Shown: piece by piece, positions 25,241 to 40,953 of the stretch
Layout: each line of letters opens with the position of its first letter
Numbering within the stretch: the first letter of the stretch is position 1
IMG/VR virus record: IMGVR_UViG_3300031963_006119
From: a virus
Lineage: Duplodnaviria > Heunggongvirae > Uroviricota > Caudoviricetes
Length of the DNA stretch: 41,744 nt
Reading direction: 5' to 3' (one strand)
The notes under the pieces: model-generated
Seen by the model: the letters and a program-made list of their open reading frames with translations, nothing else
What the model was told of the DNA's origin: nothing
Database searches by the model: none
Made by a program: the position numbers and the translations under genes

Positions 25241-25816
25241 ATGAAAATAACAGAATTAGTCGGCGTAAAGCAAGATTTGGCAACAGCATCCTATACAGAT
25301 GTTCTACAACAAAAAGGCTTTGCTGCTTTAGGCAGTGGTTCTTTCGCTACTGTGTGGGGGCACCCCGACTTTGATTATGTATTAAAAACATTCAAAGCCA
25401 GCGACACTTCTTATTTGGAATGGTTAGCTGCTTGTCGATCTAATCAACAGAATCTTTTCATTCCACAGTTTATTAGCCCAAAGCCTGTAAAAGTTGTTCC
25501 TGGCATACTTGCAATACGTATGGAAAAACTCACGCCTGCCTCAGCCGCGGTCAAACCTATTTTGGATAAGTTAGAGGATGTAATAAATGAAGTTACTATT
25601 GAAGCTGACCGGCCCACTAGTAGTGCTAGAACCATCTCAAGAATAATAAAAGAAAGTTATCCTGGACTAGCTGCCTATGCAGCGGCTAACAAAGGGTTGA
25701 TCCCGGCTATCTCCCTTATTGCCAATATCATCAATAATGGTAGTGGAGTAAATGATTTAAGCGTTAGTAATATTATGATGCGTGGCGAGCAAATGGTATT
25801 TACTGACCCAGTATAA
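25241..25816 (+). CDS. Protein-kinase-like fold protein
   Basis: Gly loop 'LGSGSFATV', 'YVLKT' Lys, hinge 'IRMEKL', catalytic loop 'NDLSVSN' (DxxxxN), 'FTDP'. Confidence 0.72.
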   Translation: MKITELVGVKQDLATASYTDVLQQKGFAALGSGSFATVWGHPDFDYVLKTFKASDTSYLEWLAACRSNQQNLFIPQFISPKPVKVVPGILAIRMEKLTPASAAVKPILDKLEDVINEVTIEADRPTSSARTISRIIKESYPGLAAYAAANKGLIPAISLIANIINNGSGVNDLSVSNIMMRGEQMVFTDPV

Positions 25817-25860: not shown

Positions 25861-26655
25861 ATGGATTATTACTCTGTACTAGGCATTGCCAAATCTGCTA
25901 ATCAAGATGACATTAAGCGAGCATATCGAAAACTTGCAATGCAACATCACCCTGACAAAGGCGGTGACGAAGCTAAGTTTAAAGAGATTAACGAAGCCTA
26001 TTCTGTATTAGGCGATCCAGCTCAACGAGCGCAATACGACAATCCTCAACCACAGGTTAGATTTAGAGCCGGTGACTTTAATAACGATCCATTCTCTGAC
26101 ATGATGTCACAGATGTTTGGTGGTCGAACAAGACGTAACCCAGACATTACTATTGCAGCAAAAATAGATCTAGTAGATTCAATTGTTGGTAAAAAATTAA
26201 TAGCAGCCTATAGATTAAGATCAGGTAGGGAAGAAACTGTAAATATTGATATACCACCCGGTGCTAGACACGGAGACACTATTCGATTCAGCGGGCTAGG
26301 CGATGATATTATGCCGGGACAACGCGGCAATCTTTTTGTAAAAATACAAATACTAGCACATCCTGTTTGGCGTAGAGAAGATGATGACTTGTATGCTAAA
26401 CAGAATGTCAACGCTCTTGACTTAATCTTAGGATGTAGTATAATAGTAAATACTGTAGAAGGTCGTCAATTAGAATTAAAAATTCCTAAAGCATCAAGAA
26501 ACGGAATAACATTTAGTATCAGCGACTATGGCGCACCAAATGTACACACAGGCAGACGTGGAAAAATTTTCCTAACAGTCGAAGCAGAAATTCCTAAAAT
26601 AGACGACGAAGATATGCTAAACAAAATTAGAGAGATAAGAAATGCAATTAGTTAA
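25861..26655 (+). CDS. dnaJ: DnaJ-family co-chaperone (type II/CbpA-like, no Zn finger)
   Basis: J-domain '[25 protein letters not shown]...[11 protein letters not shown]'; C-terminal 'IPPG..HGD.IR..GLG....GNL.V'. Confidence 0.9.
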
Positions 26656-27151
26656 ATCACCGGATCCTTGGCTAGATAAAGCAGTATCTGCTTTTGATTT
26701 TGAAACACTGGATGCTAAACAAATAGAAAAAGAAATGATTGAGCTAATGATTGCCGAAGGCGGTATAGGCCTTAGTGCTAATCAAGTTGCACTAGATGCT
26801 CAAATATTTGTTATAAAACCGTATCTGCTAGAAAATAAAGAACCGTTCGCTGTTATTAATCCTGTTATACTTAGAGTAACAGAAGATACAGATGCTAGTC
26901 CAGAAGGATGTCTGAGTCATCCGTTGCTGTTCTTGAATGTAAAAAGACCTAGGGGGTTGGTGGCCAAGTACCTTGACACAGACGCAAAAGAGTGTACAAT
27001 AGAACTATACGATATTGATGCTCGTTGCTTCCTACATGAATATGATCATCTTCAAGGGATTGAGTTCGTTGATAGAGTATCGAAACTAAAATTAGATTTA
27101 GCACGTAAAAAACAAATTAAAATAGAAAAAAGGATTGCACAACATGGTTGA
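26642..27151 (+). CDS. def: Peptide deformylase
   Basis: Three PDF motifs: 'GIGLSANQ', 'EGCLS', 'HEYDHL'. Confidence 0.93.
26973..27000 (+). promoter_or_regulatory. Possible internal sigma70 promoter (TTGACA-N16-TACAAT) inside def, upstream of clpA
   Basis: Perfect -35, 5/6 -10, 16-nt spacer, about 140 nt before the clpA start. Confidence 0.4.
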
Positions 27152-29381
27152 ACCATCAGAAGAACTACAACTTGTCTTTGATAAAGCTGTTAAAGATGCT
27201 AAGGCACTCAAGCACGAATATGTTACCCTTGAGCATCTGCTTTTTGCAATGTTGTGCTCTGAAAACTTTTACAATCTAGTAAAAGGTGCTAGTGCTGATG
27301 TTGATTATATCAAAACTAATCTAGAATATTATCTTAAAAATAATCTAGAAGAAATTAAAACAGAAGCAGAAAAGTATAAGCCAAAGAAAACACAGTCAGT
27401 TGAACGCTGTTTGAATAGAGCATTTACACAAGTATTGTTTGCTGGACGATCTGAGATTCAACTGAGCGATGTATTGCTTAGTATACTGTCTGAAAAGAAA
27501 AGTCATGCCGCATACTATGCAGAAAAAGCAGGTATTGAAAAAGAAAAGTTTGCTGATTATATCAACAATGAATTAGAAGTTGAAACACAAGATGAAGAAG
27601 TGTCAGGTGTTGCTCAAAAGGCACTGAGACAATTTACGACTAACCTTAACGACGAAGTTAAAAAGAAACGCATTGATCCATTGATTGGTCGTGCAGACGA
27701 ACTTGAAAGTATTGCTCTTGCTTTGGGTAGACGCAGTAAGAACAACGTACTGTTAGTTGGTGAGCCCGGTGTTGGTAAGACTGCTATTGCAGAAGGTCTT
27801 GCATACAATATCGTTGAAGGTACTGTGCCAGCGTTTTTAAAAGATTACTCTGTGTACATGCTGGACATTGGTAGTATGCTTGCAGGTTCTAAGTATCGCG
27901 GTGACTTTGAAGAACGTTTTAAACTTGTACTGTCAGGATTAAAGAGCAAAGGTAAAACTATTATGTTTATCGACGAAGCTCACATGATGAACGGTGCAGG
28001 TGCAGGTGGCGGCAACAGTGCTAATGACCTTGCTAATATGTTAAAGCCTGCACTGAGCAAAGGTAACATCAAAGTTGTAGCAAGTACTACTTGGGAAGAA
28101 TATCGCAAGTACTTTGAAAAGGATCGTGCGTTGATGCGCAGATTCCAACGTGTTACTGTTGACGAGCCTACTCCAGAAGTAACCAAAGACATCTTACGTG
28201 GTATTAAGAAGTACTACGAAGATCATCACAAAGTAACTATCACAGACGAAGCGATTGAAGTTGCTGTTAAGCTCAGTGTCAAGTATCAAGCAGATAAGAA
28301 GTTACCAGATAAGGCTATTGACTTGATCGATCTTGCGTGTTCTAGATTTAATCTAAAAGATGTCAAAGAAAAAATCGTAGGCGAACAAGAAGTACAGTTT
28401 GAACTTGCTAAGGTAGTAAATCTTCCTCCAGAACAGGTTATGGAGAAAGAAACTTCTAATCTAGAAAATCTAGAAAAGAATTTAAAAGCAGAAGTATACG
28501 GCCAAGATAACGCGATTGAAAATATTGTTGATAAGATTCTTGTTGCACAAGCTGGACTAAAACCAGAAAACAAACCAATTGGTAGCTTTGTATTCATGGG
28601 TCCAACTGGTACAGGTAAAACAGAAACTGCTAAACAACTTGCTGGACAGCTTGGTGTAAAATTAGTACGCTTTGACATGAGTGAATATCAGGAAAAGCAC
28701 AGCGTTAGTAAACTGATTGGTTCACCTCCAGGCTATGTAGGCTTTGAAGAAAACGCAGGTATTCTAATTACTAAATTACAAGAACACCCTAACTGTGTGC
28801 TGTTGCTGGATGAGATTGAAAAAGCACATCCTGATGTAGCCACAATCCTATTACAGATTATGGACAACGGTCGTATAACTGGATCAAATGGTAAAGAAGC
28901 TGATGCACGTAACTGTGTATTAATCTTAACTACTAACTTGGGCGCACAGGATGCTGAAAAGAATAATATAGGATTCGGTGACAGTCAAGACAAGGAATAC
29001 GAAGACAAAGAGCTTAAGAAATTCTTTAGTCCAGAGTTCCGCAATCGATTAGATGGTATTATTACATTTGGTAAACTGACTAAAGAAGTAATGATGAAGG
29101 TTGTTGGCAAGTTCTTAGTTGAACTTAAGGCTCAAGTAGCTGATAAAAATGTTGAAATTTCAATCACAAACGAATCACTTGATGCACTAGTAGATCGTGG
29201 ATTTGATAAAAAGATGGGTGCTCGTCCTCTACAACGTGTGATTGACAAAGATATTAAACGTCCTTTGGCTCGCAAGCTGTTGTTTGGCGAGTTGAAGAAT
29301 GGTGGAAAAGTAAACATCGACTTCAGAAACAACGAGTTTGTACTCGAATGTGTCACGGAGCAAGTAGTTGAAAAAGTGTGA
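27144..29381 (+). CDS. clpA: ClpA-type AAA+ unfoldase
   Basis: Clp N-domain 'HEYVTLEHLL'; D1 'GEPGVGKT'/'FIDEAH'; D2 'GPTGTGKT'/'LLDEIEKAH'; 'PEFRNRLD'; no ClpB M-domain; 'NNIGFG' loop. ATG 27144 preferred over TTG 27135. Confidence 0.9.
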   Translation: MVEPSEELQLVFDKAVKDAKALKHEYVTLEHLLFAMLCSENFYNLVKGASADVDYIKTNLEYYLKNNLEEIKTEAEKYKPKKTQSVERCLNRAFTQVLFAGRSEIQLSDVLLSILSEKKSHAAYYAEKAGIEKEKFADYINNELEVETQDEEVSGVAQKALRQFTTNLNDEVKKKRIDPLIGRADELESIALALGRRSKNNVLLVGEPGVGKTAIAEGLAYNIVEGTVPAFLKDYSVYMLDIGSMLAGSKYRGDFEERFKLVLSGLKSKGKTIMFIDEAHMMNGAGAGGGNSANDLANMLKPALSKGNIKVVASTTWEEYRKYFEKDRALMRRFQRVTVDEPTPEVTKDILRGIKKYYEDHHKVTITDEAIEVAVKLSVKYQADKKLPDKAIDLIDLACSRFNLKDVKEKIVGEQEVQFELAKVVNLPPEQVMEKETSNLENLEKNLKAEVYGQDNAIENIVDKILVAQAGLKPENKPIGSFVFMGPTGTGKTETAKQLAGQLGVKLVRFDMSEYQEKHSVSKLIGSPPGYVGFEENAGILITKLQEHPNCVLLLDEIEKAHPDVATILLQIMDNGRITGSNGKEADARNCVLILTTNLGAQDAEKNNIGFGDSQDKEYEDKELKKFFSPEFRNRLDGIITFGKLTKEVMMKVVGKFLVELKAQVADKNVEISITNESLDALVDRGFDKKMGARPLQRVIDKDIKRPLARKLLFGELKNGGKVNIDFRNNEFVLECVTEQVVEKV

Positions 29382-30036
29382 AACACACAAACTTTTTTGG
29401 AATAAATACTTCTACAAGTTGGTCATAAACAACCGACTTGCAGGAGCATTTAGGAATAAGAATCTAAGAATGGCCAAATCATTCTTAGATTCACTTGACA
29501 TAGAGTATAAGGCTGGTAGACCTTTGATGCTTACTAAAACACTACGTCAAGATGTAATAACAGAAAGTCATTATCGTGATGCAAAAAAGATACATAAGTA
29601 TCTTAACAATGTTGATGACTATATGCTTAGAGTTGAAAGTTCTAATCTATGCATTTACAGCAACGATCGAAAATGGTTAACTAATCTAAAAGCAGATATA
29701 AGCGCATATAACTTAGAAGAATTTTGGGAACCAAGTCCTGAAGCACTTAATATTCTTAATGCCAACACCATCATTGTAGAACAAGAAATACCATTCCAGT
29801 TCCGCGTTACCCTTGGTCGTAAGCGTGGAAATGAAAACTTTGCATTATGGGCTGAGAAAAATCCCAAGCAAATAAAACTGGGCCCCGTGCTTAAAGAAGT
29901 AATGATAGAAAATGGGTACGTTGACGGCATGTATTTTTATGCCCGAGACGATCGTACTCTCCAGCTATGTAACTTAATGCTGGACAATATTCGCAGAGTT
30001 GATCGTATAGTGTCAAAGCGTAATATTGATAAATAG
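29368..30036 (+). CDS. Hypothetical phage protein
   Basis: TTG start with SD GGAG, overlapping the clpA end; 222 aa; the only TAG-terminated gene I found. Confidence 0.7.
   Translation: MKKCETHKLFWNKYFYKLVINNRLAGAFRNKNLRMAKSFLDSLDIEYKAGRPLMLTKTLRQDVITESHYRDAKKIHKYLNNVDDYMLRVESSNLCIYSNDRKWLTNLKADISAYNLEEFWEPSPEALNILNANTIIVEQEIPFQFRVTLGRKRGNENFALWAEKNPKQIKLGPVLKEVMIENGYVDGMYFYARDDRTLQLCNLMLDNIRRVDRIVSKRNIDK
30030..30035 (+). promoter_or_regulatory. Late promoter core 5 nt before ATG 30041
   Basis: GATAAATAGTTACATG. Confidence 0.5.
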
Positions 30037-30457: not shown

Positions 30458-33400
30458 ATGGCTAAGAAAACTATTAATTTGGGCTCAGGAGAATTAACAG
30501 GAGACGGCGAAAGTATACGCTCTGCTTTTTCAAAAGTAAATGAAAACTTTACTGAAATATATAATGGCGGGATTGGTGGAAATATCGATCTGTCAGCTGT
30601 TGCGCAAAATATTGTACCGTCAGTAGACAGCGACGGTACTACAGGATATACGCTAGGTAGTCCAGATTTTAAATGGAAAGAATTATTTGTTTCTAACGGT
30701 TCTATCTACATTGGTGATATTAAACTAACTAACGTTGGCGGTAAGTTTGTTGCTACAAAAGTCGTTAATCCTGGCACAGAAGAAGAAGAGGATGATCCAG
30801 AAGACAGCGATGCTACAAGTGACATTAGTGGCAATGCTAACACTGGAAACTTTACGTTCAACGCAGATACAATCGCAAACAATAACGACGCATCGATTGA
30901 AGTAGTTGGTGGTTCATTAGGAAACATCGAGGTAGCTACAGTAGATGAACTTGTGCCGCCAGGCGGCATTTGGAGATTGTTTATTGGTGATGAAGCATAT
31001 CCTACTTTAGGTACAACTGTTCAGATAGGCGACACTGTAACCACATCCTGGGGAACTCCCATAACTGCCACTATTACAGATATCCAACAAGATAACGGCT
31101 ATTGGCAAATCCACGTTGATCAAGATATTACTGCGGGACATGATTATTATGACACAGTTACATTTAGTACAGTAGTAACAACTAAGACTTGGACATTTGG
31201 CCAAGATGGTAGTTTACAGATTCCAGGTGGTATTACCGGCGACAACGACATCAACATCACTATTGACAATGACGACAGTAGTACATACACTTGGAACTTT
31301 GATCGGACTGGTGATCTAACTGCTCCTGGAGATATTACCACAGGCCTCGACGGTATTGGTGGTAGATTTATTCAAGACTGTGCTGACGGAGCTACTAGTA
31401 TGCGTTGGATCAATGTCAATCAAGGCAGCAGTAACACACAACTTATCCGTGCTTACACAGGTGATCCTAAACTAAACACAGAAGTTGAACGAGCACAGAT
31501 CAAACTAAACTGGGATCAAACTGAAGACAAGAGTGGTTTGACTATTAGAACATTTGATCAATCCAATCCAAACAACGAAGTAGATCACGATTGGCTATTT
31601 AAGGGCGACGGTGTACTACAACTACCTGTGGGTGGAGACATTGTAGACAGCACTGGTGCGTCAGTATTAGGCGGTGGGTCAAGCGGTGATGCCAACATCT
31701 GGGTACAGACATTTGAATCTGAGGACGGTGCCCCAACAGACATTGTGTCAATAGCATCCAGCGTGGAATATGATAGTGCGGGCAATGTTATTGCCTTGTT
31801 CAGTCATTTTAACGACAATGACAACAGTCGTTACTATTCAGTGGGCAAGTATACCACCACAGGTACCAAGATATGGACAGCAAGATTTGAGGATGGTTTT
31901 CAAACAGACGGCTGGGGCTTGGCTGTGGACAATGACAGCAACTCAATATATGTGGCAGGTAAAACACTGGTATCAAACGAATCGGGATATGATGTATCCA
32001 CACTGACCAAACTTGACGCCGCTGATGGCACCTTTGAGTGGAGCAAGGTCTATGACTTTGGCTTCGTCAGTGACAGTCCTGTAGTTGATGTGGCCTCAGA
32101 CGGCAATCCAGTCATGGTGGGATATGCCAGCAACGGCACTGACAATTATATCACCACTACCAAAGTTGATCCGGCAGACGGCACAATAATATGGTCAAGA
32201 GCACTGGATGGACAAGGCAATGAAGAAGCCTTTGGTATGGCAGTGGGTCCTACAGGAGAAGTAGTGGCTGTTGGTTATATGACTCAGTTAGGTGTACTGT
32301 ATGCGGCCGAGACATTGTCAGTTGATCCAGCGAGCAATCCACTATGGACTGTAGGCGGTTCAATAAATTTTGTGAATGGCATCACAGCAAATTACTCTTT
32401 CACTGACGGTGTTCCCACATTTACCAATGTGGTTGATACTACGGGTGGCAGATCAGTGGACGATGTAATTGTCACTGTGTTGGGTGAGGACCTTGGCGGC
32501 GTTACTGGTGTAGATGATATGATCGTCAAAGTGGCCACCTTGGCTGCTAACGACACTGACGACCGTATGCTTGTGGTCAAGTACAACAGTTCAGGAGTAA
32601 TACAGTGGCAAAAAGCCATACAGTTTGATGCGGGCTTTGACTGCCGTGGAGCAGATGCTGACATTGACAGCGACGGTAACATCTATGTTACTGGCAGTTA
32701 TCAATATAGTTTTGAAAGCGGAACAACCAGTGCTCTCAGCATACTGAAACTGGACAGCGCGGGTGTGAAACAGTGGAGTAGACGAGTAACAGGCAACTGT
32801 GAAACATTTGGCGTCAGTGTGGTGGTTGGCGCTGATGATAAACTGTACTTGTCAGCTATGACTGGCAACAACAATGATGTGAACAACGCTTTTACCTGGG
32901 TCGCAGCCAAATATGGCATTAATGGCACCGTGGAATGGCAAAGACTCATAGACAATACCACAGGTTGGTCATTTACTGGCGACATCTTTTCAGGCGAGGG
33001 CGGCGGCAGTAACATAGCAGTCAAACAGGACTATGTGGTACTTGCGGGCGGGTTTGGTCTTCTAATAGAAGAGCCTCCTCGGGCCACAGTGGTTCAGGTC
33101 GCGGCCACTGGAGATGTGTTCTCTGTAGGCGACTGGGCGTTCACAGCGGCTTCATTCAGCGGTGTACTCAACAGTTCAGCCAGTGACATCACAGTGGTTG
33201 ACGCACAAAAATTTGACGCAGACAACGGTGAAGGCGAAGTCACAGTCACAACAGCAGAATTAACAACAGAGGTCAGCGGTTTCTTGATAGGCACGCTGTA
33301 CACAGTGGGTGGTGACAACAGTTTAATCAACGGTGCCTACACAGTTACTTTGGAAAATACTGGCACTTTAACATTGCCAGCAGGTGGTACTATCACTGAA

Positions 33401-34996
33401 GGCTATGTTACCAGCAATCCCACAATCCAACTTACTCCAGCAAGCCCGGATGTGGCCAGCCAGAAGTTGGTGATCAAGGGCGGTGCTCTCTATAATTTTA
33501 CCGACAACGGTATAAGCATAAATTACAGTAATAACACCGCCCTAGTTGGTGATACTCTTACTTTCTATATATCTTCAAACACCTACGCTGATCAAACGCT
33601 CTACTGGTGGATCTACCCAGAGGATGCTAACATATCAGATCCAGGATCAGGCACAGTGGCTGTTAATGAGTTTGGCAATGGCGATTTTAGTTTTACACTA
33701 GACAGTGATGACAATGAGTTTACTATTCGTGTGTCACCTGAAGAGGACAACTACGGTCCGGGAGTTATAGGTGTTCAATCAGGATTGATTAACCCTGACG
33801 CACCTACATTTGATTTTGAGCATCACCTACACTTGACCACAGGCGACTTGGCTGAAACCAGCATCTTCCTGGGCACTGATGATCACAATGTGCGAACAAC
33901 TGTTAACGGTGACATACAAATTACCACTCCTAACACGGGCAACAATGTTTGGACCTTTGACAATGAAGGCGGGTTAACATTACCGGCAGGTGGCGACATT
34001 CTTGATAGTAATGGCACAAGCGTGTTGGGCGGAGCAAATACTGGCGATATTACTTTTAGCGGTAGAACTATAGGAGCATCAACTGGTACTGGTTCCGATG
34101 CTATCACTATTGATGACGATTTAACAATAACCGGAAATGATTTAAACTTAGATGCAACTACAGGGTCTCCTAGAATATATTTCTATGAAGGCGGACAAAG
34201 TGGCGGCCCAGTTTTAACTATTCAAACTTATGATGTTGTATCCGGAGAGACGGGAGCAATGGTTTGGGCAGACAACAGAGGTTCTGGAGTTAGGAATTTA
34301 TTATTAGGAACAGATGGCGGGGCTGTAAAAATTAGAAGTACTGGAGATAACGCTTCTACACACGATTGGACATTTGGCCAAGATGGTAAAACAACATTGC
34401 CAGGTGCTGTAGTTAACAGCACAGTGGCCAAGACTGGGATTGCCTATAACACTGGAACAGCAACTTCTCTATCAGATAGTGGATATATAGGTGCTATTGT
34501 AGATGGCAACTACGGACCATTTACTCGAGGACCGGTCACATTTACAGTAGTGGTCACTGGTGGCGCGGCCGCATATACTGTTACTAACACAACTGGTAAT
34601 ACCGCAGTGAATGACGTTATTGGAACATTAGATACCGGTGATCTAGGCGGAACTTTAGGAAGCACCGCAAATATATCAGTTGCGGATGTTATTCAAGCAG
34701 TTACAGCACTGGATCTAACTAAAACTGTCAACAAACTAACAGACGGTATATATTCTTTAGCAGACGGTGTTGAAGGACAGATCATGTACTTGGTACCACA
34801 GAACGGAGCAACACCCGCAAACGTAAGTGTTACTGTAGCTACTTACAGAATAGGTGGTGGTACAGGAACTAACGGACTGCTATTACCATTTAGAATATTC
34901 AATGATGCCATCGCTTCATATGTTGATAGTAGTGCTTTCTGTACACTGATATTCACAGACGGTGCTTGGCAACAAACGGGCGGAGCGTGGGATTAA
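30458..34996 (+). CDS. Mosaic tail fibre / receptor-binding protein with beta-propeller (1512 aa)
   Basis: N-terminal 'GELTGDGESIRSAFSKVNENF' baseplate motif; repeated 'W.F...G....P.GG' joints; about seven propeller blades (e.g. 'GLAVDNDSNSIYVAG', 'DIDSDGNIYVTG') with 'W' closure motifs. Confidence 0.8.
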   Translation: MAKKTINLGSGELTGDGESIRSAFSKVNENFTEIYNGGIGGNIDLSAVAQNIVPSVDSDGTTGYTLGSPDFKWKELFVSNGSIYIGDIKLTNVGGKFVATKVVNPGTEEEEDDPEDSDATSDISGNANTGNFTFNADTIANNNDASIEVVGGSLGNIEVATVDELVPPGGIWRLFIGDEAYPTLGTTVQIGDTVTTSWGTPITATITDIQQDNGYWQIHVDQDITAGHDYYDTVTFSTVVTTKTWTFGQDGSLQIPGGITGDNDINITIDNDDSSTYTWNFDRTGDLTAPGDITTGLDGIGGRFIQDCADGATSMRWINVNQGSSNTQLIRAYTGDPKLNTEVERAQIKLNWDQTEDKSGLTIRTFDQSNPNNEVDHDWLFKGDGVLQLPVGGDIVDSTGASVLGGGSSGDANIWVQTFESEDGAPTDIVSIASSVEYDSAGNVIALFSHFNDNDNSRYYSVGKYTTTGTKIWTARFEDGFQTDGWGLAVDNDSNSIYVAGKTLVSNESGYDVSTLTKLDAADGTFEWSKVYDFGFVSDSPVVDVASDGNPVMVGYASNGTDNYITTTKVDPADGTIIWSRALDGQGNEEAFGMAVGPTGEVVAVGYMTQLGVLYAAETLSVDPASNPLWTVGGSINFVNGITANYSFTDGVPTFTNVVDTTGGRSVDDVIVTVLGEDLGGVTGVDDMIVKVATLAANDTDDRMLVVKYNSSGVIQWQKAIQFDAGFDCRGADADIDSDGNIYVTGSYQYSFESGTTSALSILKLDSAGVKQWSRRVTGNCETFGVSVVVGADDKLYLSAMTGNNNDVNNAFTWVAAKYGINGTVEWQRLIDNTTGWSFTGDIFSGEGGGSNIAVKQDYVVLAGGFGLLIEEPPRATVVQVAATGDVFSVGDWAFTAASFSGVLNSSASDITVVDAQKFDADNGEGEVTVTTAELTTEVSGFLIGTLYTVGGDNSLINGAYTVTLENTGTLTLPAGGTITEGYVTSNPTIQLTPASPDVASQKLVIKGGALYNFTDNGISINYSNNTALVGDTLTFYISSNTYADQTLYWWIYPEDANISDPGSGTVAVNEFGNGDFSFTLDSDDNEFTIRVSPEEDNYGPGVIGVQSGLINPDAPTFDFEHHLHLTTGDLAETSIFLGTDDHNVRTTVNGDIQITTPNTGNNVWTFDNEGGLTLPAGGDILDSNGTSVLGGANTGDITFSGRTIGASTGTGSDAITIDDDLTITGNDLNLDATTGSPRIYFYEGGQSGGPVLTIQTYDVVSGETGAMVWADNRGSGVRNLLLGTDGGAVKIRSTGDNASTHDWTFGQDGKTTLPGAVVNSTVAKTGIAYNTGTATSLSDSGYIGAIVDGNYGPFTRGPVTFTVVVTGGAAAYTVTNTTGNTAVNDVIGTLDTGDLGGTLGSTANISVADVIQAVTALDLTKTVNKLTDGIYSLADGVEGQIMYLVPQNGATPANVSVTVATYRIGGGTGTNGLLLPFRIFNDAIASYVDSSAFCTLIFTDGAWQQTGGAWD
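31189..31211 (+). repeat. 23-nt direct repeat copy 1 (TTGGACATTTGGCCAAGATGGTA)
   Basis: Identical to 34366-34388; encodes WTFGQDG. Confidence 0.8.
34366..34388 (+). repeat. 23-nt direct repeat copy 2
   Basis: Identical to 31189-31211. Confidence 0.8.
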
Positions 34997-35003
34997 AGAA
35001 CGG

Positions 35004-35073
35004 TAAATAGTACTAAAGAGATAATCTATGCTAGTCTACACTAAGAACTTGAGATTAAGTAAAAAAGTAAATA
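35004..35073 (+). promoter_or_regulatory. Two late promoter cores (35004-35009, 35068-35073)
   Basis: GGTAAATA and AGTAAATA upstream of the 35098 cluster. Confidence 0.5.
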
Positions 35074-35097
35074 CATGATAAATTTAAGGTTTGATAT

Positions 35098-35664
35098 ATG
35101 GAACATTTTGTAAGAGTAATATTTGAAAAGAGCGATAGTCTAACTGAAAGTTTAGACGAATCTGTCTTTCCAGGTAACGAACTATTTGAAACTGCGCAGG
35201 GCGCACATGTGTTTCAAATACCTCTACCAAGAGCACTTACAGAACAAGAATCAGACGAATATGCACAACGCCTAAGCAACTACATGTTTGAGCAAGGATT
35301 TGACGATTTTGATATTGAAATAAGCTCAGATATAGATGAGAACATTATTGAAGAAACCTACGAAGGTGACGACTTCTTTATAGAGTACGGTGTAATGTGG
35401 TTCAACGAAGATCAGCTAGACGAAGCAGAATATCAAGGTCGTAAAGTTTCGTTGGGCAAGCCCATGCAGGGCGATGTTAAAAAGTTTAAGGTATATGTTA
35501 AAGATCCAGGCACAGGTAACATTAAAAAAGTTAACTTTGGTGATCCTAACATGACCATTAAGAAATCTAATCCAGCTAGACGTAGAAGCTTTAGAGCAAG
35601 ACATAATTGTGATAATCCAGGACCGCGTACTAAGGCACGCTATTGGTCTTGCAGAAAATGGTAA
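35098..35664 (+). CDS. Bipartite protein: acidic N-half, basic Cys-containing C-terminal module
   Basis: Acidic region to 'QLDE', then 'AEYQGRKV.LGKP...KFKVYVKDP...KKVNFGDP...RRSFRARHNCD...KARYWSCRKW'. Confidence 0.75.
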   Translation: MEHFVRVIFEKSDSLTESLDESVFPGNELFETAQGAHVFQIPLPRALTEQESDEYAQRLSNYMFEQGFDDFDIEISSDIDENIIEETYEGDDFFIEYGVMWFNEDQLDEAEYQGRKVSLGKPMQGDVKKFKVYVKDPGTGNIKKVNFGDPNMTIKKSNPARRRSFRARHNCDNPGPRTKARYWSCRKW

Positions 35665-35668
35665 TAAT

Positions 35669-36004
35669 ATGAGAATAGTTGAATTTACACACCCAGATAA
35701 TAAAGAACTACCTTTTGATGTAGTTGAAGACGCAATAGTATTCATGCGTAACGATCCCATGTTCTATCGCAAACAATACTATCCTACTGTAACTAAACTT
35801 GCAGACATGAGTCGCGCAGGTAAATCTTGCAACAAAATGGAAATGTTTTCTTCTATGGTTGAAGAAGGTATTACTCAATACTGCCGAAAATTTAAGCTAG
35901 CCGATCAAGCTGATGAAATTTTTAACAATGACGATCGCTCTGCTATTATAGATAAACTATTTTCCGAAGAAATGGATCTTATTAAAAAGGGCGATTACAA
36001 ATGA
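35669..36004 (+). CDS. Hypothetical protein (putative internal head protein)
   Basis: ATG 35669 (MRIVEF...) avoids overlap with the previous gene; ATGA-coupled to 36001. Confidence 0.65.
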   Translation: MRIVEFTHPDNKELPFDVVEDAIVFMRNDPMFYRKQYYPTVTKLADMSRAGKSCNKMEMFSSMVEEGITQYCRKFKLADQADEIFNNDDRSAIIDKLFSEEMDLIKKGDYK

Positions 36005-36888
36005 AAGTCTATCAAATTGTTGAAGCTAAAAGTGCAGCCGTAATAGCATTTGGTAGGATGAATCCCCCTACTATAGGGCACAAAAAACTAGTTGACAAAA
36101 TTAAAAGTTTACCCGGTGACCCTTATATCTTTTTAAGTCAATCGCAGAAACCTAAGACTGACCCACTAGACTTTCAAACAAAATTGCGCTACGCAAAGTT
36201 TTTCTTTCCAGAGCTAACCATTGGTAATCCAGAAGTAAAAACAATCATTCAAGCATTACAAAAGATTAATCAACTTGGGTATACTGAGCTAATTTATGTA
36301 GCAGGATCTGATCGTGTAGAATCATTTCAAGAACTAATTAACAAATACAACGGTGTTGAATACAATTTTAACAACATACAAGTAGTTAGTGCAGGCGAGC
36401 GTGATCCAGATGCAGATGGTGCTGAAGGTATGAGTGCAAGTAAAATGCGAGCTGCTGCGGCCAGCGGTGACTTTGATGCATTTGCACAAGGTGTGCCTAA
36501 TCAAGAACTAGCACATGAAATGTTTGCGGCTGTACGCAAGGGTATGGGAATCAAAGACAAAGAAGCTGTGCCTGCAGAAAGTATGGAAGAACAAACAGTT
36601 GATCCTAACAAACTAATGGCATCTATGTTAATGGGTGGTGAATATAAAGAATTTGATTTAACACCAACTATGGAAAAAAATAATTGGGTTGGAACACCAA
36701 GACAAGTTATCGAGCAAGCTGATAAATGGTTGTCAGATTTTTTAAGACAACGTGGCGCCATGTATTCTAATTTAAAATTAAGATACAAGGGCACGACTAT
36801 GAACTCTAGTAAAACAGGTGATGTTGATGCAAGCGACCCAGAGTTAGACGATATGCTTAATCAAGCAAGACAACGATTAAAAAAATAA
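36001..36888 (+). CDS. HxGH-superfamily (cytidyl/adenylyl)transferase-like protein with C-terminal extension
   Basis: 'FGRMNPPTIGH', 'VAGSDR', 'SAGERDPDA..AEGMSASKMR' as in T4-like phage cytidyltransferases. Confidence 0.8.
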   Translation: MKVYQIVEAKSAAVIAFGRMNPPTIGHKKLVDKIKSLPGDPYIFLSQSQKPKTDPLDFQTKLRYAKFFFPELTIGNPEVKTIIQALQKINQLGYTELIYVAGSDRVESFQELINKYNGVEYNFNNIQVVSAGERDPDADGAEGMSASKMRAAAASGDFDAFAQGVPNQELAHEMFAAVRKGMGIKDKEAVPAESMEEQTVDPNKLMASMLMGGEYKEFDLTPTMEKNNWVGTPRQVIEQADKWLSDFLRQRGAMYSNLKLRYKGTTMNSSKTGDVDASDPELDDMLNQARQRLKK

Positions 36889-37115
36889 TGGACGAAATCC
36901 AACAGCTCAAACGCCTAGCGGGTATCAACGAATTTAAAGGATACACTGCATACGAAGGCTCAAACATTTCAGTTACAGGTACTGAAAAGAAACGGATTGA
37001 GCGTGAACGTAATATACAACCTGGTACAGAAGAATGGTTTCAACTTTGGTTTACTATTCCTGGGCTTACTGGCCCCTTGAGTCAACAGCCAGGATTTAGA
37101 GGACGCAAGCGATGA
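36888..37115 (+). CDS. Hypothetical protein (putative internal head protein)
   Basis: 'MDEIQQLKRLAGINE' leader; coupled at both ends. Confidence 0.7.
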   Translation: MDEIQQLKRLAGINEFKGYTAYEGSNISVTGTEKKRIERERNIQPGTEEWFQLWFTIPGLTGPLSQQPGFRGRKR

Positions 37116-38185
37116 AGTTACGAGAAATTTTTGAAAACGGAGGTCGCATTGTAAAGGGCGTCAATACAACAGTTGATGTTGGTCCTGATGAAATTAAAAT
37201 ACAAGCTGCAAAGTTTGGCAATACAGTAGACAAAGATGGTTACCCACCTACACACAAAAGACGTGTTAAAGGTTCTTCAACTAATGTTTTATCTAATCTA
37301 GGTGAAGGCAAAAATAAAGTAAGTATGGAAGATCGACATCCAAATGATCGTCCATATGGTCCAGAAACTAAACCAACTATGCCAGCTGGCACTGTTAAAG
37401 TAGATGTAAGCGATGTATATGATTGGTACAAACTAGGCATGCACATCAGCGATCTTGAAGGCATGGGCAAACATGATTTTGGTAAAGGTCCTCCCAGCGC
37501 CATATTGTCATTTGGAAGTGAAGATTTGGAACACGAATATATTCAAAATTTAAAAAAGTTAGGGTTAACAACTACTGATCTCGATCCTGCTGCACATAAG
37601 AAAAAGAAAGGTCAAAAAACAGATCCTACTTATAATGTAGAAAGTGTAGTTGAAGGCAAGTTTAGAACTAACGATGTTGAAGAATTTAAGCCTAATAATG
37701 ATTCCTTAGACGATATGAAAACAAAGTATCTTCCAGACTGGGAGATGTTGGATCATAAAACACTTCAAGCAAAGTATGTAGCACAAGATCATAGAGAAGC
37801 TGAAGCATTTGTAAGAATAATTAATAAGCTAAGTGAAAAGATGGATCACTTCTGTGAAGTAACACAGGACGTTGCAGAAGTTGCTGTAAAGACAACTACC
37901 TTTGATGTTAAGGGATTAACTATACTGGACTTTCAAATAGCAATGGTCATTGATAAGTTTGCCAATGATGTTGGAATAAAACAAGTACGTATGACTGGAA
38001 ACTTTGGCATGCACGAAAACTTTGCAGATGGAAAGAATCCAGGGCGCAAAGGACTTGCTAAACGCAGTGGTGTGAATACTAAGGCTAGTGTAAGCAGTCT
38101 AAGAAAAACAGCAAAGAATAGCTCAGGTGAAAAACAGCGCATGGCACATTGGCTAGCTAATATGAAATCAGGAAAAAAGAAATGA
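37112..38185 (+). CDS. Multi-module protein with a pterin-4a-carbinolamine dehydratase-like domain
   Basis: 'LPDWEML..KTLQAKY..D..EA.AFV..I..LSEKMDHF.EV....EV....TTFDVKGLT.LDF..A..ID' follows the PCD/PhhB pattern (about 37730-37960); flanked by unrelated modules. Confidence 0.7.
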   Translation: MKLREIFENGGRIVKGVNTTVDVGPDEIKIQAAKFGNTVDKDGYPPTHKRRVKGSSTNVLSNLGEGKNKVSMEDRHPNDRPYGPETKPTMPAGTVKVDVSDVYDWYKLGMHISDLEGMGKHDFGKGPPSAILSFGSEDLEHEYIQNLKKLGLTTTDLDPAAHKKKKGQKTDPTYNVESVVEGKFRTNDVEEFKPNNDSLDDMKTKYLPDWEMLDHKTLQAKYVAQDHREAEAFVRIINKLSEKMDHFCEVTQDVAEVAVKTTTFDVKGLTILDFQIAMVIDKFANDVGIKQVRMTGNFGMHENFADGKNPGRKGLAKRSGVNTKASVSSLRKTAKNSSGEKQRMAHWLANMKSGKKK

Positions 38186-38646
38186 AAGTACATGATCTAG
38201 TAAACGAAGCTCCTATTGAAATGGATCCTAGTGAACCAAACAATCCAAGAATCTACGGGCATGAAAAAGCTAACCCTATGACACTTAAAGGTCGTATCAT
38301 GCAGGCCAGAGCACAGTTAAAAGAACTTGCAAAGATGGCAGACAGCGACGAACTCGAAGTATGGGAAAGAATTACAAAGCTATCTAAAGGCGGCATGTTT
38401 ATGGGCCTAGAACAAAACTTTGAACAAATACGCCACGGTATAGGAGAACTTGCCAAGAAGCGTAAAAAGGGCGGAACAGGTAGCAGAGGTATCAATCGAG
38501 GCATAGGAGAAACTACTACAGCAGGTGCTGTAGCCGCTGTAGTTAATCCAGGTGCTAACACAAAGCCTAAAAAGACAAATAAAGTTGCTAAAAATGCATT
38601 AGACACCAATGATAATTTGCTTGGTGGCAAACCTGTCAAAAGATAA
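38182..38646 (+). CDS. Hypothetical two-module protein (putative internal head protein)
   Basis: 'MKVHDLVNE' leader; 'IGE-TTTAGAVAAV.NP' C-terminal module. Confidence 0.7.
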   Translation: MKVHDLVNEAPIEMDPSEPNNPRIYGHEKANPMTLKGRIMQARAQLKELAKMADSDELEVWERITKLSKGGMFMGLEQNFEQIRHGIGELAKKRKKGGTGSRGINRGIGETTTAGAVAAVVNPGANTKPKKTNKVAKNALDTNDNLLGGKPVKR

Positions 38647-38649
38647 ATA
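38644..38649 (+). promoter_or_regulatory. Late promoter core
   Basis: GATAAATA overlapping the stop of 38182; SD GGAG before 38677. Confidence 0.5.
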
Positions 38650-38676
38650 CTATAATAACGAATATCGGAGTGTTTT

Positions 38677-40245
38677 ATGCGCGAAAAAGATTTAAAATCT
38701 GTCAAAGAAGGCCTAGGTGATTTAGCTGCACAAGCAGAAATGGATCACGAAATTCAAATGGCTCGTTCTGAGCTGTACAAAATTGCCAAGTATGCAATCA
38801 AACTGCACGAAATGCTTAAAGGTCGTTCTGAAGAACAGGGCCTAGAAGCATGGCAGCAGAGCAAAATTACCAAGGCAGCTGACTACATTGGTTCAGTTTT
38901 TCATAACTTAGAGTATGAAATGAAGTTTGGCGCTCAAATGGCCGAAAGTGAAAAACAAAAAGGCGTTGACGGCAAAGCATGCTGGGACGGTTACAAGCGC
39001 ATGGGTACTAAGCAAAAAGGCGGCAAGACTGTAGATAATTGTGTTAAAGAAGATGAATACAAGTTACGTCTAGCTCAACAACTAGAAGAAAAAGCTAAGT
39101 CAAAAGCGCAACAAAAATTTATGGGCATGGTCTATGCTACAAAGAAAGGCGAAAAAGCTGCAAGTCCAGAAGTAGCCAAGGCTGCTAAAGGCATGAGCAA
39201 ATCAGCTGCTAAAGACTATGCAAGTACAAAGCACAAAGGCAAGCCCGAACACGTAGGCGAAAGCAGACTGGTTGAGTCTAACGAAGTTAATGACTATATT
39301 GATCGTGTAATAGCAAAGCGTGGTGTTCCTACAACTATTGAAGAAGTTGAACAAGACATGAACGACACAGTAAAAGGAATACGCGATTTCTTACAGTCAC
39401 GAGACGACGACAGTTTCCTTCAAGGCTTTAGCCGCGGATTTAAAAGATTCGCAATGAGTCCAGACTATATTAAAAGACAATTCTTAGGAAGAGTTGCAGA
39501 GCGATTAGATCTTCCTGGATTGTATTCAATGCCAAATGGCGACAGCTATGTATATGTTGATAAAGACCAATCAGGAAATTATAAATCTGCAAGATATGCA
39601 AATATAGAAGATGCTGTTATAATTTATAAATCTGGATTTATTACTAGAAAGAAAGCTATAGAGTTACGAGATAATAATGTAAACACTGCATTGAGAAATC
39701 CAAAACACCCATCTAGTGCGCTGTATGGCGATCCAGGTCCAGCCGCTGGTTGGGCTAAAACAAATCCGCTAGTAAAACCGGACGGATCAACTACAACTAG
39801 TGGCGGTGCACAAGTAACCCCTGTAAAACCGGACGGATCAACTACAACTAGTGGCGGTGCACAAGTAACCCCTGTAAAACCGGACGGATCAACTACAACT
39901 AGTGGCGGTGCACAAGTAACCCCTGTAAAACCGGACGGATCAACTACAACTAGTGGCGGCCTCGATCGCGCTGGCGGGAGTAGTTATGTAGGATCAGTTG
40001 GTACAGCCACTAACGATCCGGCCGCAGGTAGTGGAACAAATACTAGAGGTGGTAGAGATCCATCAGCACAGTTTTCAAGAGCAATTACAGCTTTAGCTAA
40101 GGCCAACAATATTAAAAATCCTAATCTTATTAGAGTTGGTCAGACAATTAAATTACCAGGTAAGACAGAGCCGTATACCGTTGTTAAAGGCGATACCCTG
40201 TCAGGAATCGCTGCTGGAAAATTTAAAGGTACTGCACCAAAGTAA
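38677..40245 (+). CDS. Multi-module protein with 17-aa tandem repeats and a C-terminal permuted LysM-like domain
   Basis: Modules 'HEIQMARSEL...KITKAADY', 'CWDGY...DNCVK', 'KAKSKAQQKFMG'; VKPDGSTTTSGGAQVTP repeats; 'ANNIKNPNLIRVGQTIKLPG...YTVVKGDTLSGIA'. Confidence 0.75.
   Translation: MREKDLKSVKEGLGDLAAQAEMDHEIQMARSELYKIAKYAIKLHEMLKGRSEEQGLEAWQQSKITKAADYIGSVFHNLEYEMKFGAQMAESEKQKGVDGKACWDGYKRMGTKQKGGKTVDNCVKEDEYKLRLAQQLEEKAKSKAQQKFMGMVYATKKGEKAASPEVAKAAKGMSKSAAKDYASTKHKGKPEHVGESRLVESNEVNDYIDRVIAKRGVPTTIEEVEQDMNDTVKGIRDFLQSRDDDSFLQGFSRGFKRFAMSPDYIKRQFLGRVAERLDLPGLYSMPNGDSYVYVDKDQSGNYKSARYANIEDAVIIYKSGFITRKKAIELRDNNVNTALRNPKHPSSALYGDPGPAAGWAKTNPLVKPDGSTTTSGGAQVTPVKPDGSTTTSGGAQVTPVKPDGSTTTSGGAQVTPVKPDGSTTTSGGLDRAGGSSYVGSVGTATNDPAAGSGTNTRGGRDPSAQFSRAITALAKANNIKNPNLIRVGQTIKLPGKTEPYTVVKGDTLSGIAAGKFKGTAPK
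39772..39959 (+). repeat. In-frame tandem repeat, 51-nt unit x 3.7
   Basis: GTAAAACCGGACGGATCAACTACAACTAGTGGCGGTGCACAAGTAACCCCT at 39772, 39823 and 39874, plus a partial copy at 39925; copies are identical. Confidence 0.95.
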
Positions 40246-40248
40246 CCT

Positions 40249-40953
40249 ATGAATGTTTTTGATATTATAATAGAGCAAGATCCTGCGGCAGCAACTCAAG
40301 GCAAAACTATTGAGACAATGTCTGATCTGCGCAATGCCTTCGATGACCAGCAGTGGCGAAATATTATCATGCATTTTATAAAATTAGATCTTGATCGAGC
40401 TGCTAGTACAGAGGATAGAGAATATCAAATTGATAGGGCTAACGCTGCGTTTGGTGCTAAAAGCAATCCAATGTCACCTGTTATGTGGAATTCAAAAGCT
40501 ATTACCTACGGTATTAGGCTTCCTAAATCACCTAGTTCTTGGCAAGAAATATATGATTTTATAAAACCACATGCTAATACTAAGGTTCAACTAAAGACTG
40601 TTCCACAGGCATCTCCGCTTGCAACTGATAGAAAAGAAACCTTACAAGACATTTCAACTTGGGTTCCCATGAGCGTAACTGAATTCACTAAATGGGAAGG
40701 TGGCGCACATGACTATATTAAAAAATGGCTTGCAGTACTTATTGAACAAAAACGATCTAAGCAATGGGCCGATGCATATAAAACAGGCAGTACTAATCAG
40801 GCGAAACGAGCAAGAGATACTATTGTTCAAGGCCTTGGTGAACAATTTGAAAAAGAAGGCAAGCTTCTTAAAAAAGACGTAGATATTGGATTATTTTCAG
40901 CTCTTAGAACGATGGATACTATTATTAGTAACTATCTTTTAGGAAAAAAATAA
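40249..40953 (+). CDS. Hypothetical protein (putative internal head protein)
   Basis: 'MNVFDIIIE' leader; last gene before an early promoter. Confidence 0.7.
   Translation: MNVFDIIIEQDPAAATQGKTIETMSDLRNAFDDQQWRNIIMHFIKLDLDRAASTEDREYQIDRANAAFGAKSNPMSPVMWNSKAITYGIRLPKSPSSWQEIYDFIKPHANTKVQLKTVPQASPLATDRKETLQDISTWVPMSVTEFTKWEGGAHDYIKKWLAVLIEQKRSKQWADAYKTGSTNQAKRARDTIVQGLGEQFEKEGKLLKKDVDIGLFSALRTMDTIISNYLLGKK

Follow-up and report, generated by a model that had tools for sequence, protein, structure and literature searches.

A freshwater phage sequence of 41,744 nucleotides (IMG/VR record IMGVR_UViG_3300031963_006119; "the window" below means this whole stretch) carries an island of eight consecutive plus-strand genes, g1 to g8, whose products begin with short leaders ending in a hydrophobic residue, any residue and Glu. 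The question raised by this locus is whether the leaders act like the capsid-targeting sequence (CTS) of phage T4, MKTYQEFIAE, the sequence and biology of which have been described (PMC8442874, PMC9026906, PMC3012670, PMC5694885). Our answer is that the island products are probably directed to the prohead and cleaved after Glu. This T4 CTS-like reading had been proposed in the initial annotation of the window, and five independent computed lines support it: a leader specific to the island, a positive control in T4, a cleavage-type logo at internal junctions, a prohead protease in relatives, and leader-bearing proteins in the virions of other phages. The last line, from mass spectrometry, is stronger for the T4-like cyanophage S-CREM2 and weaker for the Pseudomonas jumbo phage PA5oct. 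The initial annotation had also called the system undescribed, which was too strong, since T4 IPI-III and Alt are a known prototype.

The eight open reading frames (ORFs) span 35098-40953, with the coordinates and N-termini quoted at the outset:

35098..35664, plus strand: g1, 188 amino acids (aa); leader MEHFVRVIFE (35098-35127), acidic N-terminal part.
35669..36004, plus strand: g2, 111 aa; minimal leader MRIVE, the weakest case.
36001..36888, plus strand: g3, 295 aa; leader MKVYQIVE (36001-36024), HxGH cytidylyltransferase-like domain.
36888..37115, plus strand: g4, 75 aa, basic; N-terminus closing on the conserved LAGINE/FKGY (a slash marks the putative cut).
37112..38185, plus strand: g5, 357 aa, polyprotein-like; leader MKLREIFE (37112-37135).
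38182..38646, plus strand: g6, 154 aa; leader MKVHDLVNE (38182-38208), junction GIGE110.
38677..40245, plus strand: g7, 522 aa; N-terminus closing on SVKE11/G.
40249..40953, plus strand: g8, 234 aa; leader MNVFDIIIE (40249-40275).

For g2, the best start is the ATG at 35669 (MRIVE), in agreement with gene callers on identical contigs, and its orthologues begin MKIFE or MRIEE. The bodies of the eight proteins had been described as unrelated, and the best pairwise BLASTP E-value among them is indeed 0.04, with no significant similarity.

Within the window, the loose motif [ILV]-x-E falls in the first 15 residues of 8/8 island ORFs and of ~8/40 other ORFs; eight such ORFs in a row would be expected by chance at ~1e-6, a post hoc figure. 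Using a strict T4-like pattern, M[KR]x(1-4)[EDQ][hydrophobic][hydrophobic]x?E, we found that g3, g5 and g6 alone matched among the 48 window ORFs; when N-termini were compared with shuffled controls, 0.06 matches were expected and the maximum in 200 shuffles was 2, against the 3 observed. The leaders are 5-15 residues long. Those of g3, g5 and g6 resemble the T4-type propeptide throughout, those of g8 and g1 come close, and g2, g4 and g7 share its C-terminal part only. All eight fit the gp21 motif of (L/I)-x-Glu followed by a small residue.

As a positive control, the same script was run on the T4 genome. The strict pattern matched 3/267 ORFs, namely IPII and IPIII (both MKTYQEFIAE) and the uncharacterised gp61.1 (MKTFKEFIKE), and the loose pattern additionally picked gp21, gp22, gp24, gp68, Alt and ~30 unrelated genes. 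In T4, where the answer is known, the strict leader is a good predictor and the bare hydrophobic-x-Glu end is not. The 54-aa gp61.1 reads MKTFKEFIKE...IGTTSGAVVN followed by a basic tail, a layout like that of the small island proteins; from its sequence, it may be an unrecognised CTS protein.

The leader was then followed through the clade to which the window belongs. By its gene matches the window is placed as part of a freshwater jumbo myovirus, the nearest cultured relative of which is PA5oct: its clamp loader has 55% identity to that of PA5oct and 45-47% to those of Atu_ph07, Phosso and RsoM2USA. A DNA-level search of 50,697 phage records gave no close relative of the window; proteins identical to g5 are found on many lake-metagenome contigs, up to 0.2-1 Mb, and lakes in which these contigs are abundant include that of JGI sample 3300032050. 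Our comparison set consisted of ~70 related IMG/VR contigs, two of them complete genomes of 357 kb (G001) and 355 kb (G002). Across related loci the island is hypervariable and mosaic, with homologous modules shuffled between proteins, and most of the shuffled-module proteins are headed by a leader of the consensus M-[KR]-x-x-[EDQ]-[FIL]-[ILV]-x-E, as in MRAKEFIIE, MKLREIFE, MRLRQLFE and MRAHEFVTE. In ~1 Mb of related loci we counted 81 distinct strict leaders, shared by dozens of module families. Measured against this consensus, the leaders of g3, g5, g6 and g8 fit well and that of g1 moderately. A comparison of motif frequency, made in 14 loci with both flanks, gave 48/148 distinct island ORFs vs 9/173 outside (Fisher p = 1e-10); as a baseline, the leader pattern follows 7% of internal Met residues. 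Leader genes are also found elsewhere in the relatives' genomes.

Could such N-termini simply result from constraints on gene starts (early codons rich in A, for translation) or from module-shuffling recombination joints, with no function in sorting or cleavage? Two features suit this explanation, codon 2 being nearly always AAA or AGA and the modules being clearly shuffled between genes. However, in codons 5-8 the third position changes freely and the class of residue is conserved, which points to selection on the peptide, in a codon test that is partly circular, as the sequences had been picked by residue class. The pattern is also rare in other genes of the same genomes, and the internal junctions described below retain P3 and P1 alone and not the whole gene start. 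We hold this to be the least probable of the alternatives weighed here. As candidate explanations of the leader, a chance origin, a DNA-level motif and a signal peptide were each rejected; the leader has an acidic, amphipathic character unlike that of Sec or Tat signals.

For the junction test, a stand-alone leader-headed module was aligned inside a longer protein and the residue opposite the leader Glu was scored. That residue is Glu in 85/178 distinct contexts (background 6.5%, p = 8e-52), and in 67/85 of the Glu junctions P3 is V, L, I, F or M (79%; background 28%, p = 3e-22), p-values which are too small, since the junction sequences are mutually related and not independent. No enrichment is seen at P2 or P4, and P1' is mainly G, A or S. 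Many different module families carry this pattern, which by sequence is a gp21-type cleavage logo (P3 V/L/I, P1 Glu, P1' G/A/S across the clade), retained at the joints, the remainder of the gene start having been lost. A hydrophobic P4 is typical of the N-terminal leaders and not of the internal joints. This fits the split between targeting and processing residues in T4, where genetics has assigned targeting to CTS residues 4 and 7 and found residues 8 and 10 to be required for processing; with Asp at position 10, cutting is blocked and targeting is intact (PMC9026906).

In the window, homology breakpoints coincide with NLGE65, SVVE181 and GMHE302 of g5, E110 of g6, and E90 and E195 of g7. 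The junction candidates of g7 are QMAE90, CVKE125 and HVGE195, and g3 has a C-terminal extension beyond SMEE197. The polyprotein-like g5 would be divided as follows:

g5 residues 9-65: module A, homologous to a stand-alone 64-aa gene in phage Phosso.
g5 residues 66-181: module B, of the VDVSDVYDWYKLG family.
g5 residues 182-302: module C, Pterin_4a/DCoH-like.
g5 residues 303-357: module D, a basic tail.

In Phosso, a 469-kb Sinorhizobium phage, module A (GRIVKGVNTTVDVG...) is encoded at L135:6001-6195 with a leader of its own, MRYAEILKLLE, directly after large genes annotated as hypothetical proteins only.

A protease of the gp21 type was looked for in the complete relatives. One PF03420 (Peptidase_S77) gene scoring above the curated cut-off was found in each of G001 and G002, the two genomes that this search covered; one such gene of the clade lies at L084:11645-12268, minus strand. 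In both genomes the protease gene has the portal gene on one side and the scaffold gene on the other, and after the scaffold gene comes a gp23-type capsid gene (E = 1e-39 to T4 gp23). The protease is highly conserved in the clade, with > 8000 close homologues in metagenomes; in a single look-up, the homologue P0021 was not on the 220-kb island-bearing contig. The relatives' capsid protein reads ...YLAE/SATAGATSAGNVA, and its junction, Glu/[ST]ATAGATS, recurs after leaders and at internal joints of island proteins, g6 included. In the small island proteins, a leader is followed by [ST]ATAGATSAGNVA and this by a basic tail. The C-terminal 44 aa of g6 (38512-38643) comprise a module that copies the beginning of the mature capsid protein, followed by a basic tail. 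The copied segment can be assigned to the following gene:

L084:9350-10525, minus strand: gp23-type capsid gene of G001, source of the copied [ST]ATAGATSAGNVA segment.

The [ST]ATAGATSAGNVA module copies the gp23-type capsid segment lying right after the predicted LAE/S cleavage site, and is found both in small genes headed by a leader and at C-terminal ends behind hydrophobic-x-Glu joints.

A module that copies the mature N-terminus of the capsid protein points to head structure, and with it comes the possibility that the island proteins enter the prohead and are cut but serve assembly only, as core, scaffold, space-filling or charge-neutralising proteins like T4 gp22, gp67 and gp68, their fragments being expelled or inert and playing no role after injection. 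T4 gp22, gp68, gp21 and gp24 likewise begin with hydrophobic-x-Glu leaders, and many island modules are short and very basic, the isoelectric points of g4, g5, g6 and g7 being 9.1-9.9. We nevertheless regard a role restricted to assembly as unlikely. In its hypervariability and mosaic make-up the island differs from essential core genes, and it includes enzyme-like domains; moreover, homologous cytidylyltransferases and kinases persist in purified cyanophage virions (PMC10665884).

The S-CREM2 virion proteome includes a SAM hydrolase, a kinase, a cytidylyltransferase and a Cas9-like protein, and kinases and cytidylyltransferases are, according to its authors, often found in cyanophage virions; the paper draws no connection to a CTS (PMC10665884). 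The S-CREM2 virion proteins gp6, gp14 and gp154 begin MKDFDSFLEE, (V)KRFDAFLTE and MKNFSSFLTE, and gp154, detected in the virion by mass spectrometry, is the homologue of g3. A leader MK.F..F[LF].E is common to five S-CREM2 proteins (L136/L147, OR473000), gp6, gp13, gp14, gp136 and gp154; three of these (gp6, gp14 and gp154) are among the "non-structural" virion proteins detected by mass spectrometry. Another S-CREM2 virion protein, gp12, reads ...FASFMAE. In cyanophage S-SM2 the g3 homologue begins MKSFFQFLSE and is followed, two genes downstream, by a DUF3008 gene. Literature searches returned only a T4 review on capsid targeting in cyanophages, and nothing on cytidylyltransferase in virions. 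In PA5oct, the leader-bearing gp150, gp238, gp380, gp381 and gp226 are flagged as virion proteins by ESI-MS/MS (tandem mass spectrometry with electrospray ionisation), and the leader-bearing gp271, gp382, gp422, gp217, gp225 and gp415 carry no such flag. The PA5oct ClpP-like protein gp272 (L131, 179881-181020), which adjoins gp271, is flagged by mass spectrometry as virion-associated.

The genomic setting of the island suggests a further alternative. In every related locus the upstream flank is a DnaJ / peptide deformylase / ClpA-like block, and downstream there are two small genes and then a DNA polymerase B gene. In the window, the upstream block is:

25861-30036: DnaJ-like, peptide deformylase, ClpA-like and 222-aa genes, preceding the island in every related locus.

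A 1512-aa ORF (30458-34996) separates this block from the island in the lineage of the window; it has no counterpart at that position in the other lineages examined. The constancy of the neighbourhood would suit a leader that is a tag for other machinery, whether the DnaJ, peptide deformylase or ClpA-like proteins or some modifying enzyme. Against this, T4 and S-CREM2 have the same leader type without such neighbours, leader genes occur elsewhere in the relatives' genomes, and the P3/P1/P1' cleavage logo at internal junctions is not explained by Clp unfoldases. We therefore judge a tag for other machinery to be very improbable.

Several observations weigh against a head-targeted, cleaved island and temper our preference for it. 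The same flanks place the island between chaperone genes and the DNA polymerase gene, outside the head module. The leaders of g2, g4 and g7 retain just the hydrophobic-x-Glu end, a common motif, and when the loose pattern was applied to T4 it matched 38/282 ORFs, 7 of them known head-core proteins. Some island homologues have the start of the leader and lack the terminal Glu (MKAKEFIPT, MRASDFVKD); by analogy, the T4 Asp10 effect could explain these. The relatedness of the junction sequences, noted above, also counts here. In PA5oct the virion enrichment is modest, at 2/4 strict and 5/11 looser leaders vs a base of 93/461, and the g3 homologue gp307, which lacks a leader ending in Glu, was not among the proteins detected in the virion; its contrast with gp154 of S-CREM2, one protein of each kind, is suggestive. 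Finally, the case for the window's own phage is a sequence-based one, and the protease has been seen in relatives only.

Comparison with known systems clarifies which aspects of the island are familiar. As with the T4 CTS proteins, a leader of about 10 residues has a hydrophobic-x-Glu end (EFIAE in T4; EIFE, QIVE and DLVNE here), the mature parts are unrelated so that only the leader is shared, and a gp21-family protease is present, here in relatives; T4 Alt is a precedent for an enzyme as cargo. The differences are that the leader here is one residue shorter and more variable, that 8-15 genes lie in one mosaic island in place of three small basic proteins, that multi-module proteins have internal cleavage-type junctions, and that the phage is a distantly related jumbo phage known here from sequence alone. 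With the virion enzymes of S-CREM2-type cyanophages the island shares the g3-type cytidylyltransferase family and kinases (PMC10665884), as well as the leader type, which the MK.F..FL.E N-termini fit; S-SM2, like the island, has a DUF3008 gene near the cytidylyltransferase gene. In contrast, the genes in question lie scattered in the cyanophage instead of together in one island, and polyprotein-like chains were not observed there. The jumbo phages phiKZ, 201phi2-1 and SPN3US also pack many head proteins, their ejection and inner-body proteins, which a related protease cuts after Glu, and the propeptides are thought to target (PMC5694885, PMC7411985). Their propeptides, however, are mostly > 100 residues long and are cut at A/S/G-x-Glu, whereas the island leaders have 5-15 residues and a hydrophobic P3, as in T4, and do not conform to the phiKZ type. 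The Dar (defence against restriction) proteins of P1 are likewise packaged in the head and delivered with the DNA, some being anti-restriction proteins (PMC9024508, PMC12810830), but they have no known shared short leader or gp21-type processing and no sequence relation to the island.

The domain calls of the initial annotation were retained as sequence matches for nucleotidyltransferase, Pterin_4a, LysM and kinase. The HxGH nucleotidyltransferase of g3 has a PHROG match at 3e-56, and its orthologues begin MKLREIFEA, MRLRQIFEA or MKLLELFEA; the family is purely viral and is fused to many different domains. A PDB sequence search with g3 gave no match. Module C of g5 matches Pterin_4a at 3.7e-15 (Pfam 56 bits vs a cut-off of 26), but when it is aligned to 2ebb and 2v6u, H-F-C stands in place of the HHP motif, and the loss of one of the paired catalytic histidines makes the enzyme label doubtful. 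Module B was predicted, from a 28-sequence alignment, to adopt a small beta-alpha-beta-alpha-beta fold (pLDDT 70), and a Foldseek search of this model against the PDB and AlphaFold DB clusters gave nothing better than E = 0.2. The basic C-terminal module of g1 (phrog_7595 / weak DUF5754) recurs on other proteins in related loci, and of the g4 leader only the hydrophobic-x-Glu part is present.

The long g7 combines a helical DHE..MAR..LYK module, CW.GYK, DUF3008, 17-aa tandem repeats and a LysM piece (match 2.6e-10). Its perfect 51-bp tandem repeat, in 3.7 copies, lies at 39772-39959 of the window, and in near-identical contigs g7 is shorter by two 17-aa units (488 vs 522 aa), which indicates that the repeat copy number varies in the population. 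For g8 no relatives past near-identical contigs were found, and in a fold search the Atlas features gave nothing usable, all structure rows being < TM 0.3. An NCBIfam search of the cargo proteins gave nothing past the PCD and nucleotidyltransferase hints. An additional MKITE start had been pointed out upstream of the island; it is present and belongs to the following gene:

25241..25816, plus strand: 191-aa kinase-like protein (kinase PHROG match 4.8e-10) with the weak leader MKITE; possibly a further member, located outside the island.

All large ORFs of the window are on the plus strand. Its PHROG matches include a baseplate wedge connector, the clamp loader, thymidylate synthase, dCMP deaminase, PhoH, endolysin and virion structural proteins.

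The view that the eight genes stand under late boxes was not borne out: the T4 late box TATAAATA is upstream of none of them, and no more than two of the eight genes can be credited with a box. Five of the eight island starts overlap or abut the preceding gene, which suggests one or two operons. A related octamer, GATAAATA, differs by one base from T4 TATAAATA and occurs five times in the window, always on the plus strand (6599, 8600, 18566, 30028 and 38642); four of the five lie 28-35 nt before start codons, those of genes 6627, 8628, 18601 and g7, gene 18601 having a virion-structural PHROG match. The candidates at the island itself are:

38642..38649, plus strand: GATAAATA box, 35 nt before the g7 start; candidate late-type promoter.
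35067..35085, plus strand: near-matches to GATAAATA (GTAAATA, GATAAATT), 13-31 nt before the g1 start.

Taken as head-targeted cargo, the island products would be addressed to the assembling prohead by the short N-terminal leader, which a gp21-family prohead protease would remove by cutting after Glu. The multi-module g5, g7, g6 and g3 would be cut again at the hydrophobic-x-Glu junctions between modules, so that one leader would load a chain of small modules. The modules would be retained inside the DNA-filled head and would probably exit along with the DNA on infection. The leader, its confinement to the island, the junction logo, the protease of relatives and the leader-bearing homologues in virions of other phages were observed; targeting, cleavage, retention and ejection in this phage are inferred. 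More tentatively, and with somewhat less than even confidence, we propose that in a large clade of freshwater jumbo phages one tag loads polyproteins, which the head protease cuts into many small modules, including enzymes, basic peptides and copies of the capsid N-terminus, and that the cargo evolves by module splicing. An anti-defence or takeover role of this cargo is only a guess. The principle itself was already known from T4 IPI-III and Alt. The new elements are that it is seen in a jumbo phage, that the genes form an island, and that there are polyprotein-like chains whose cleavage-type joints are conserved.

If the island products are indeed such cargo, the packaged and probably injected proteins of a very abundant group of uncultured jumbo phages of fresh water could be read off the sequence alone, and the same listing may extend to T4-like cyanophages. 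This would provide a defined set of candidate first-minute effectors to examine for anti-defence or takeover functions, and would explain the recurrent cytidylyltransferase-like enzymes and kinases in purified cyanophage virions. The short leaders could also be used as packaging tags for phage engineering beyond T4, and the polyprotein-like chains would represent a new way to load several cargos with one tag.

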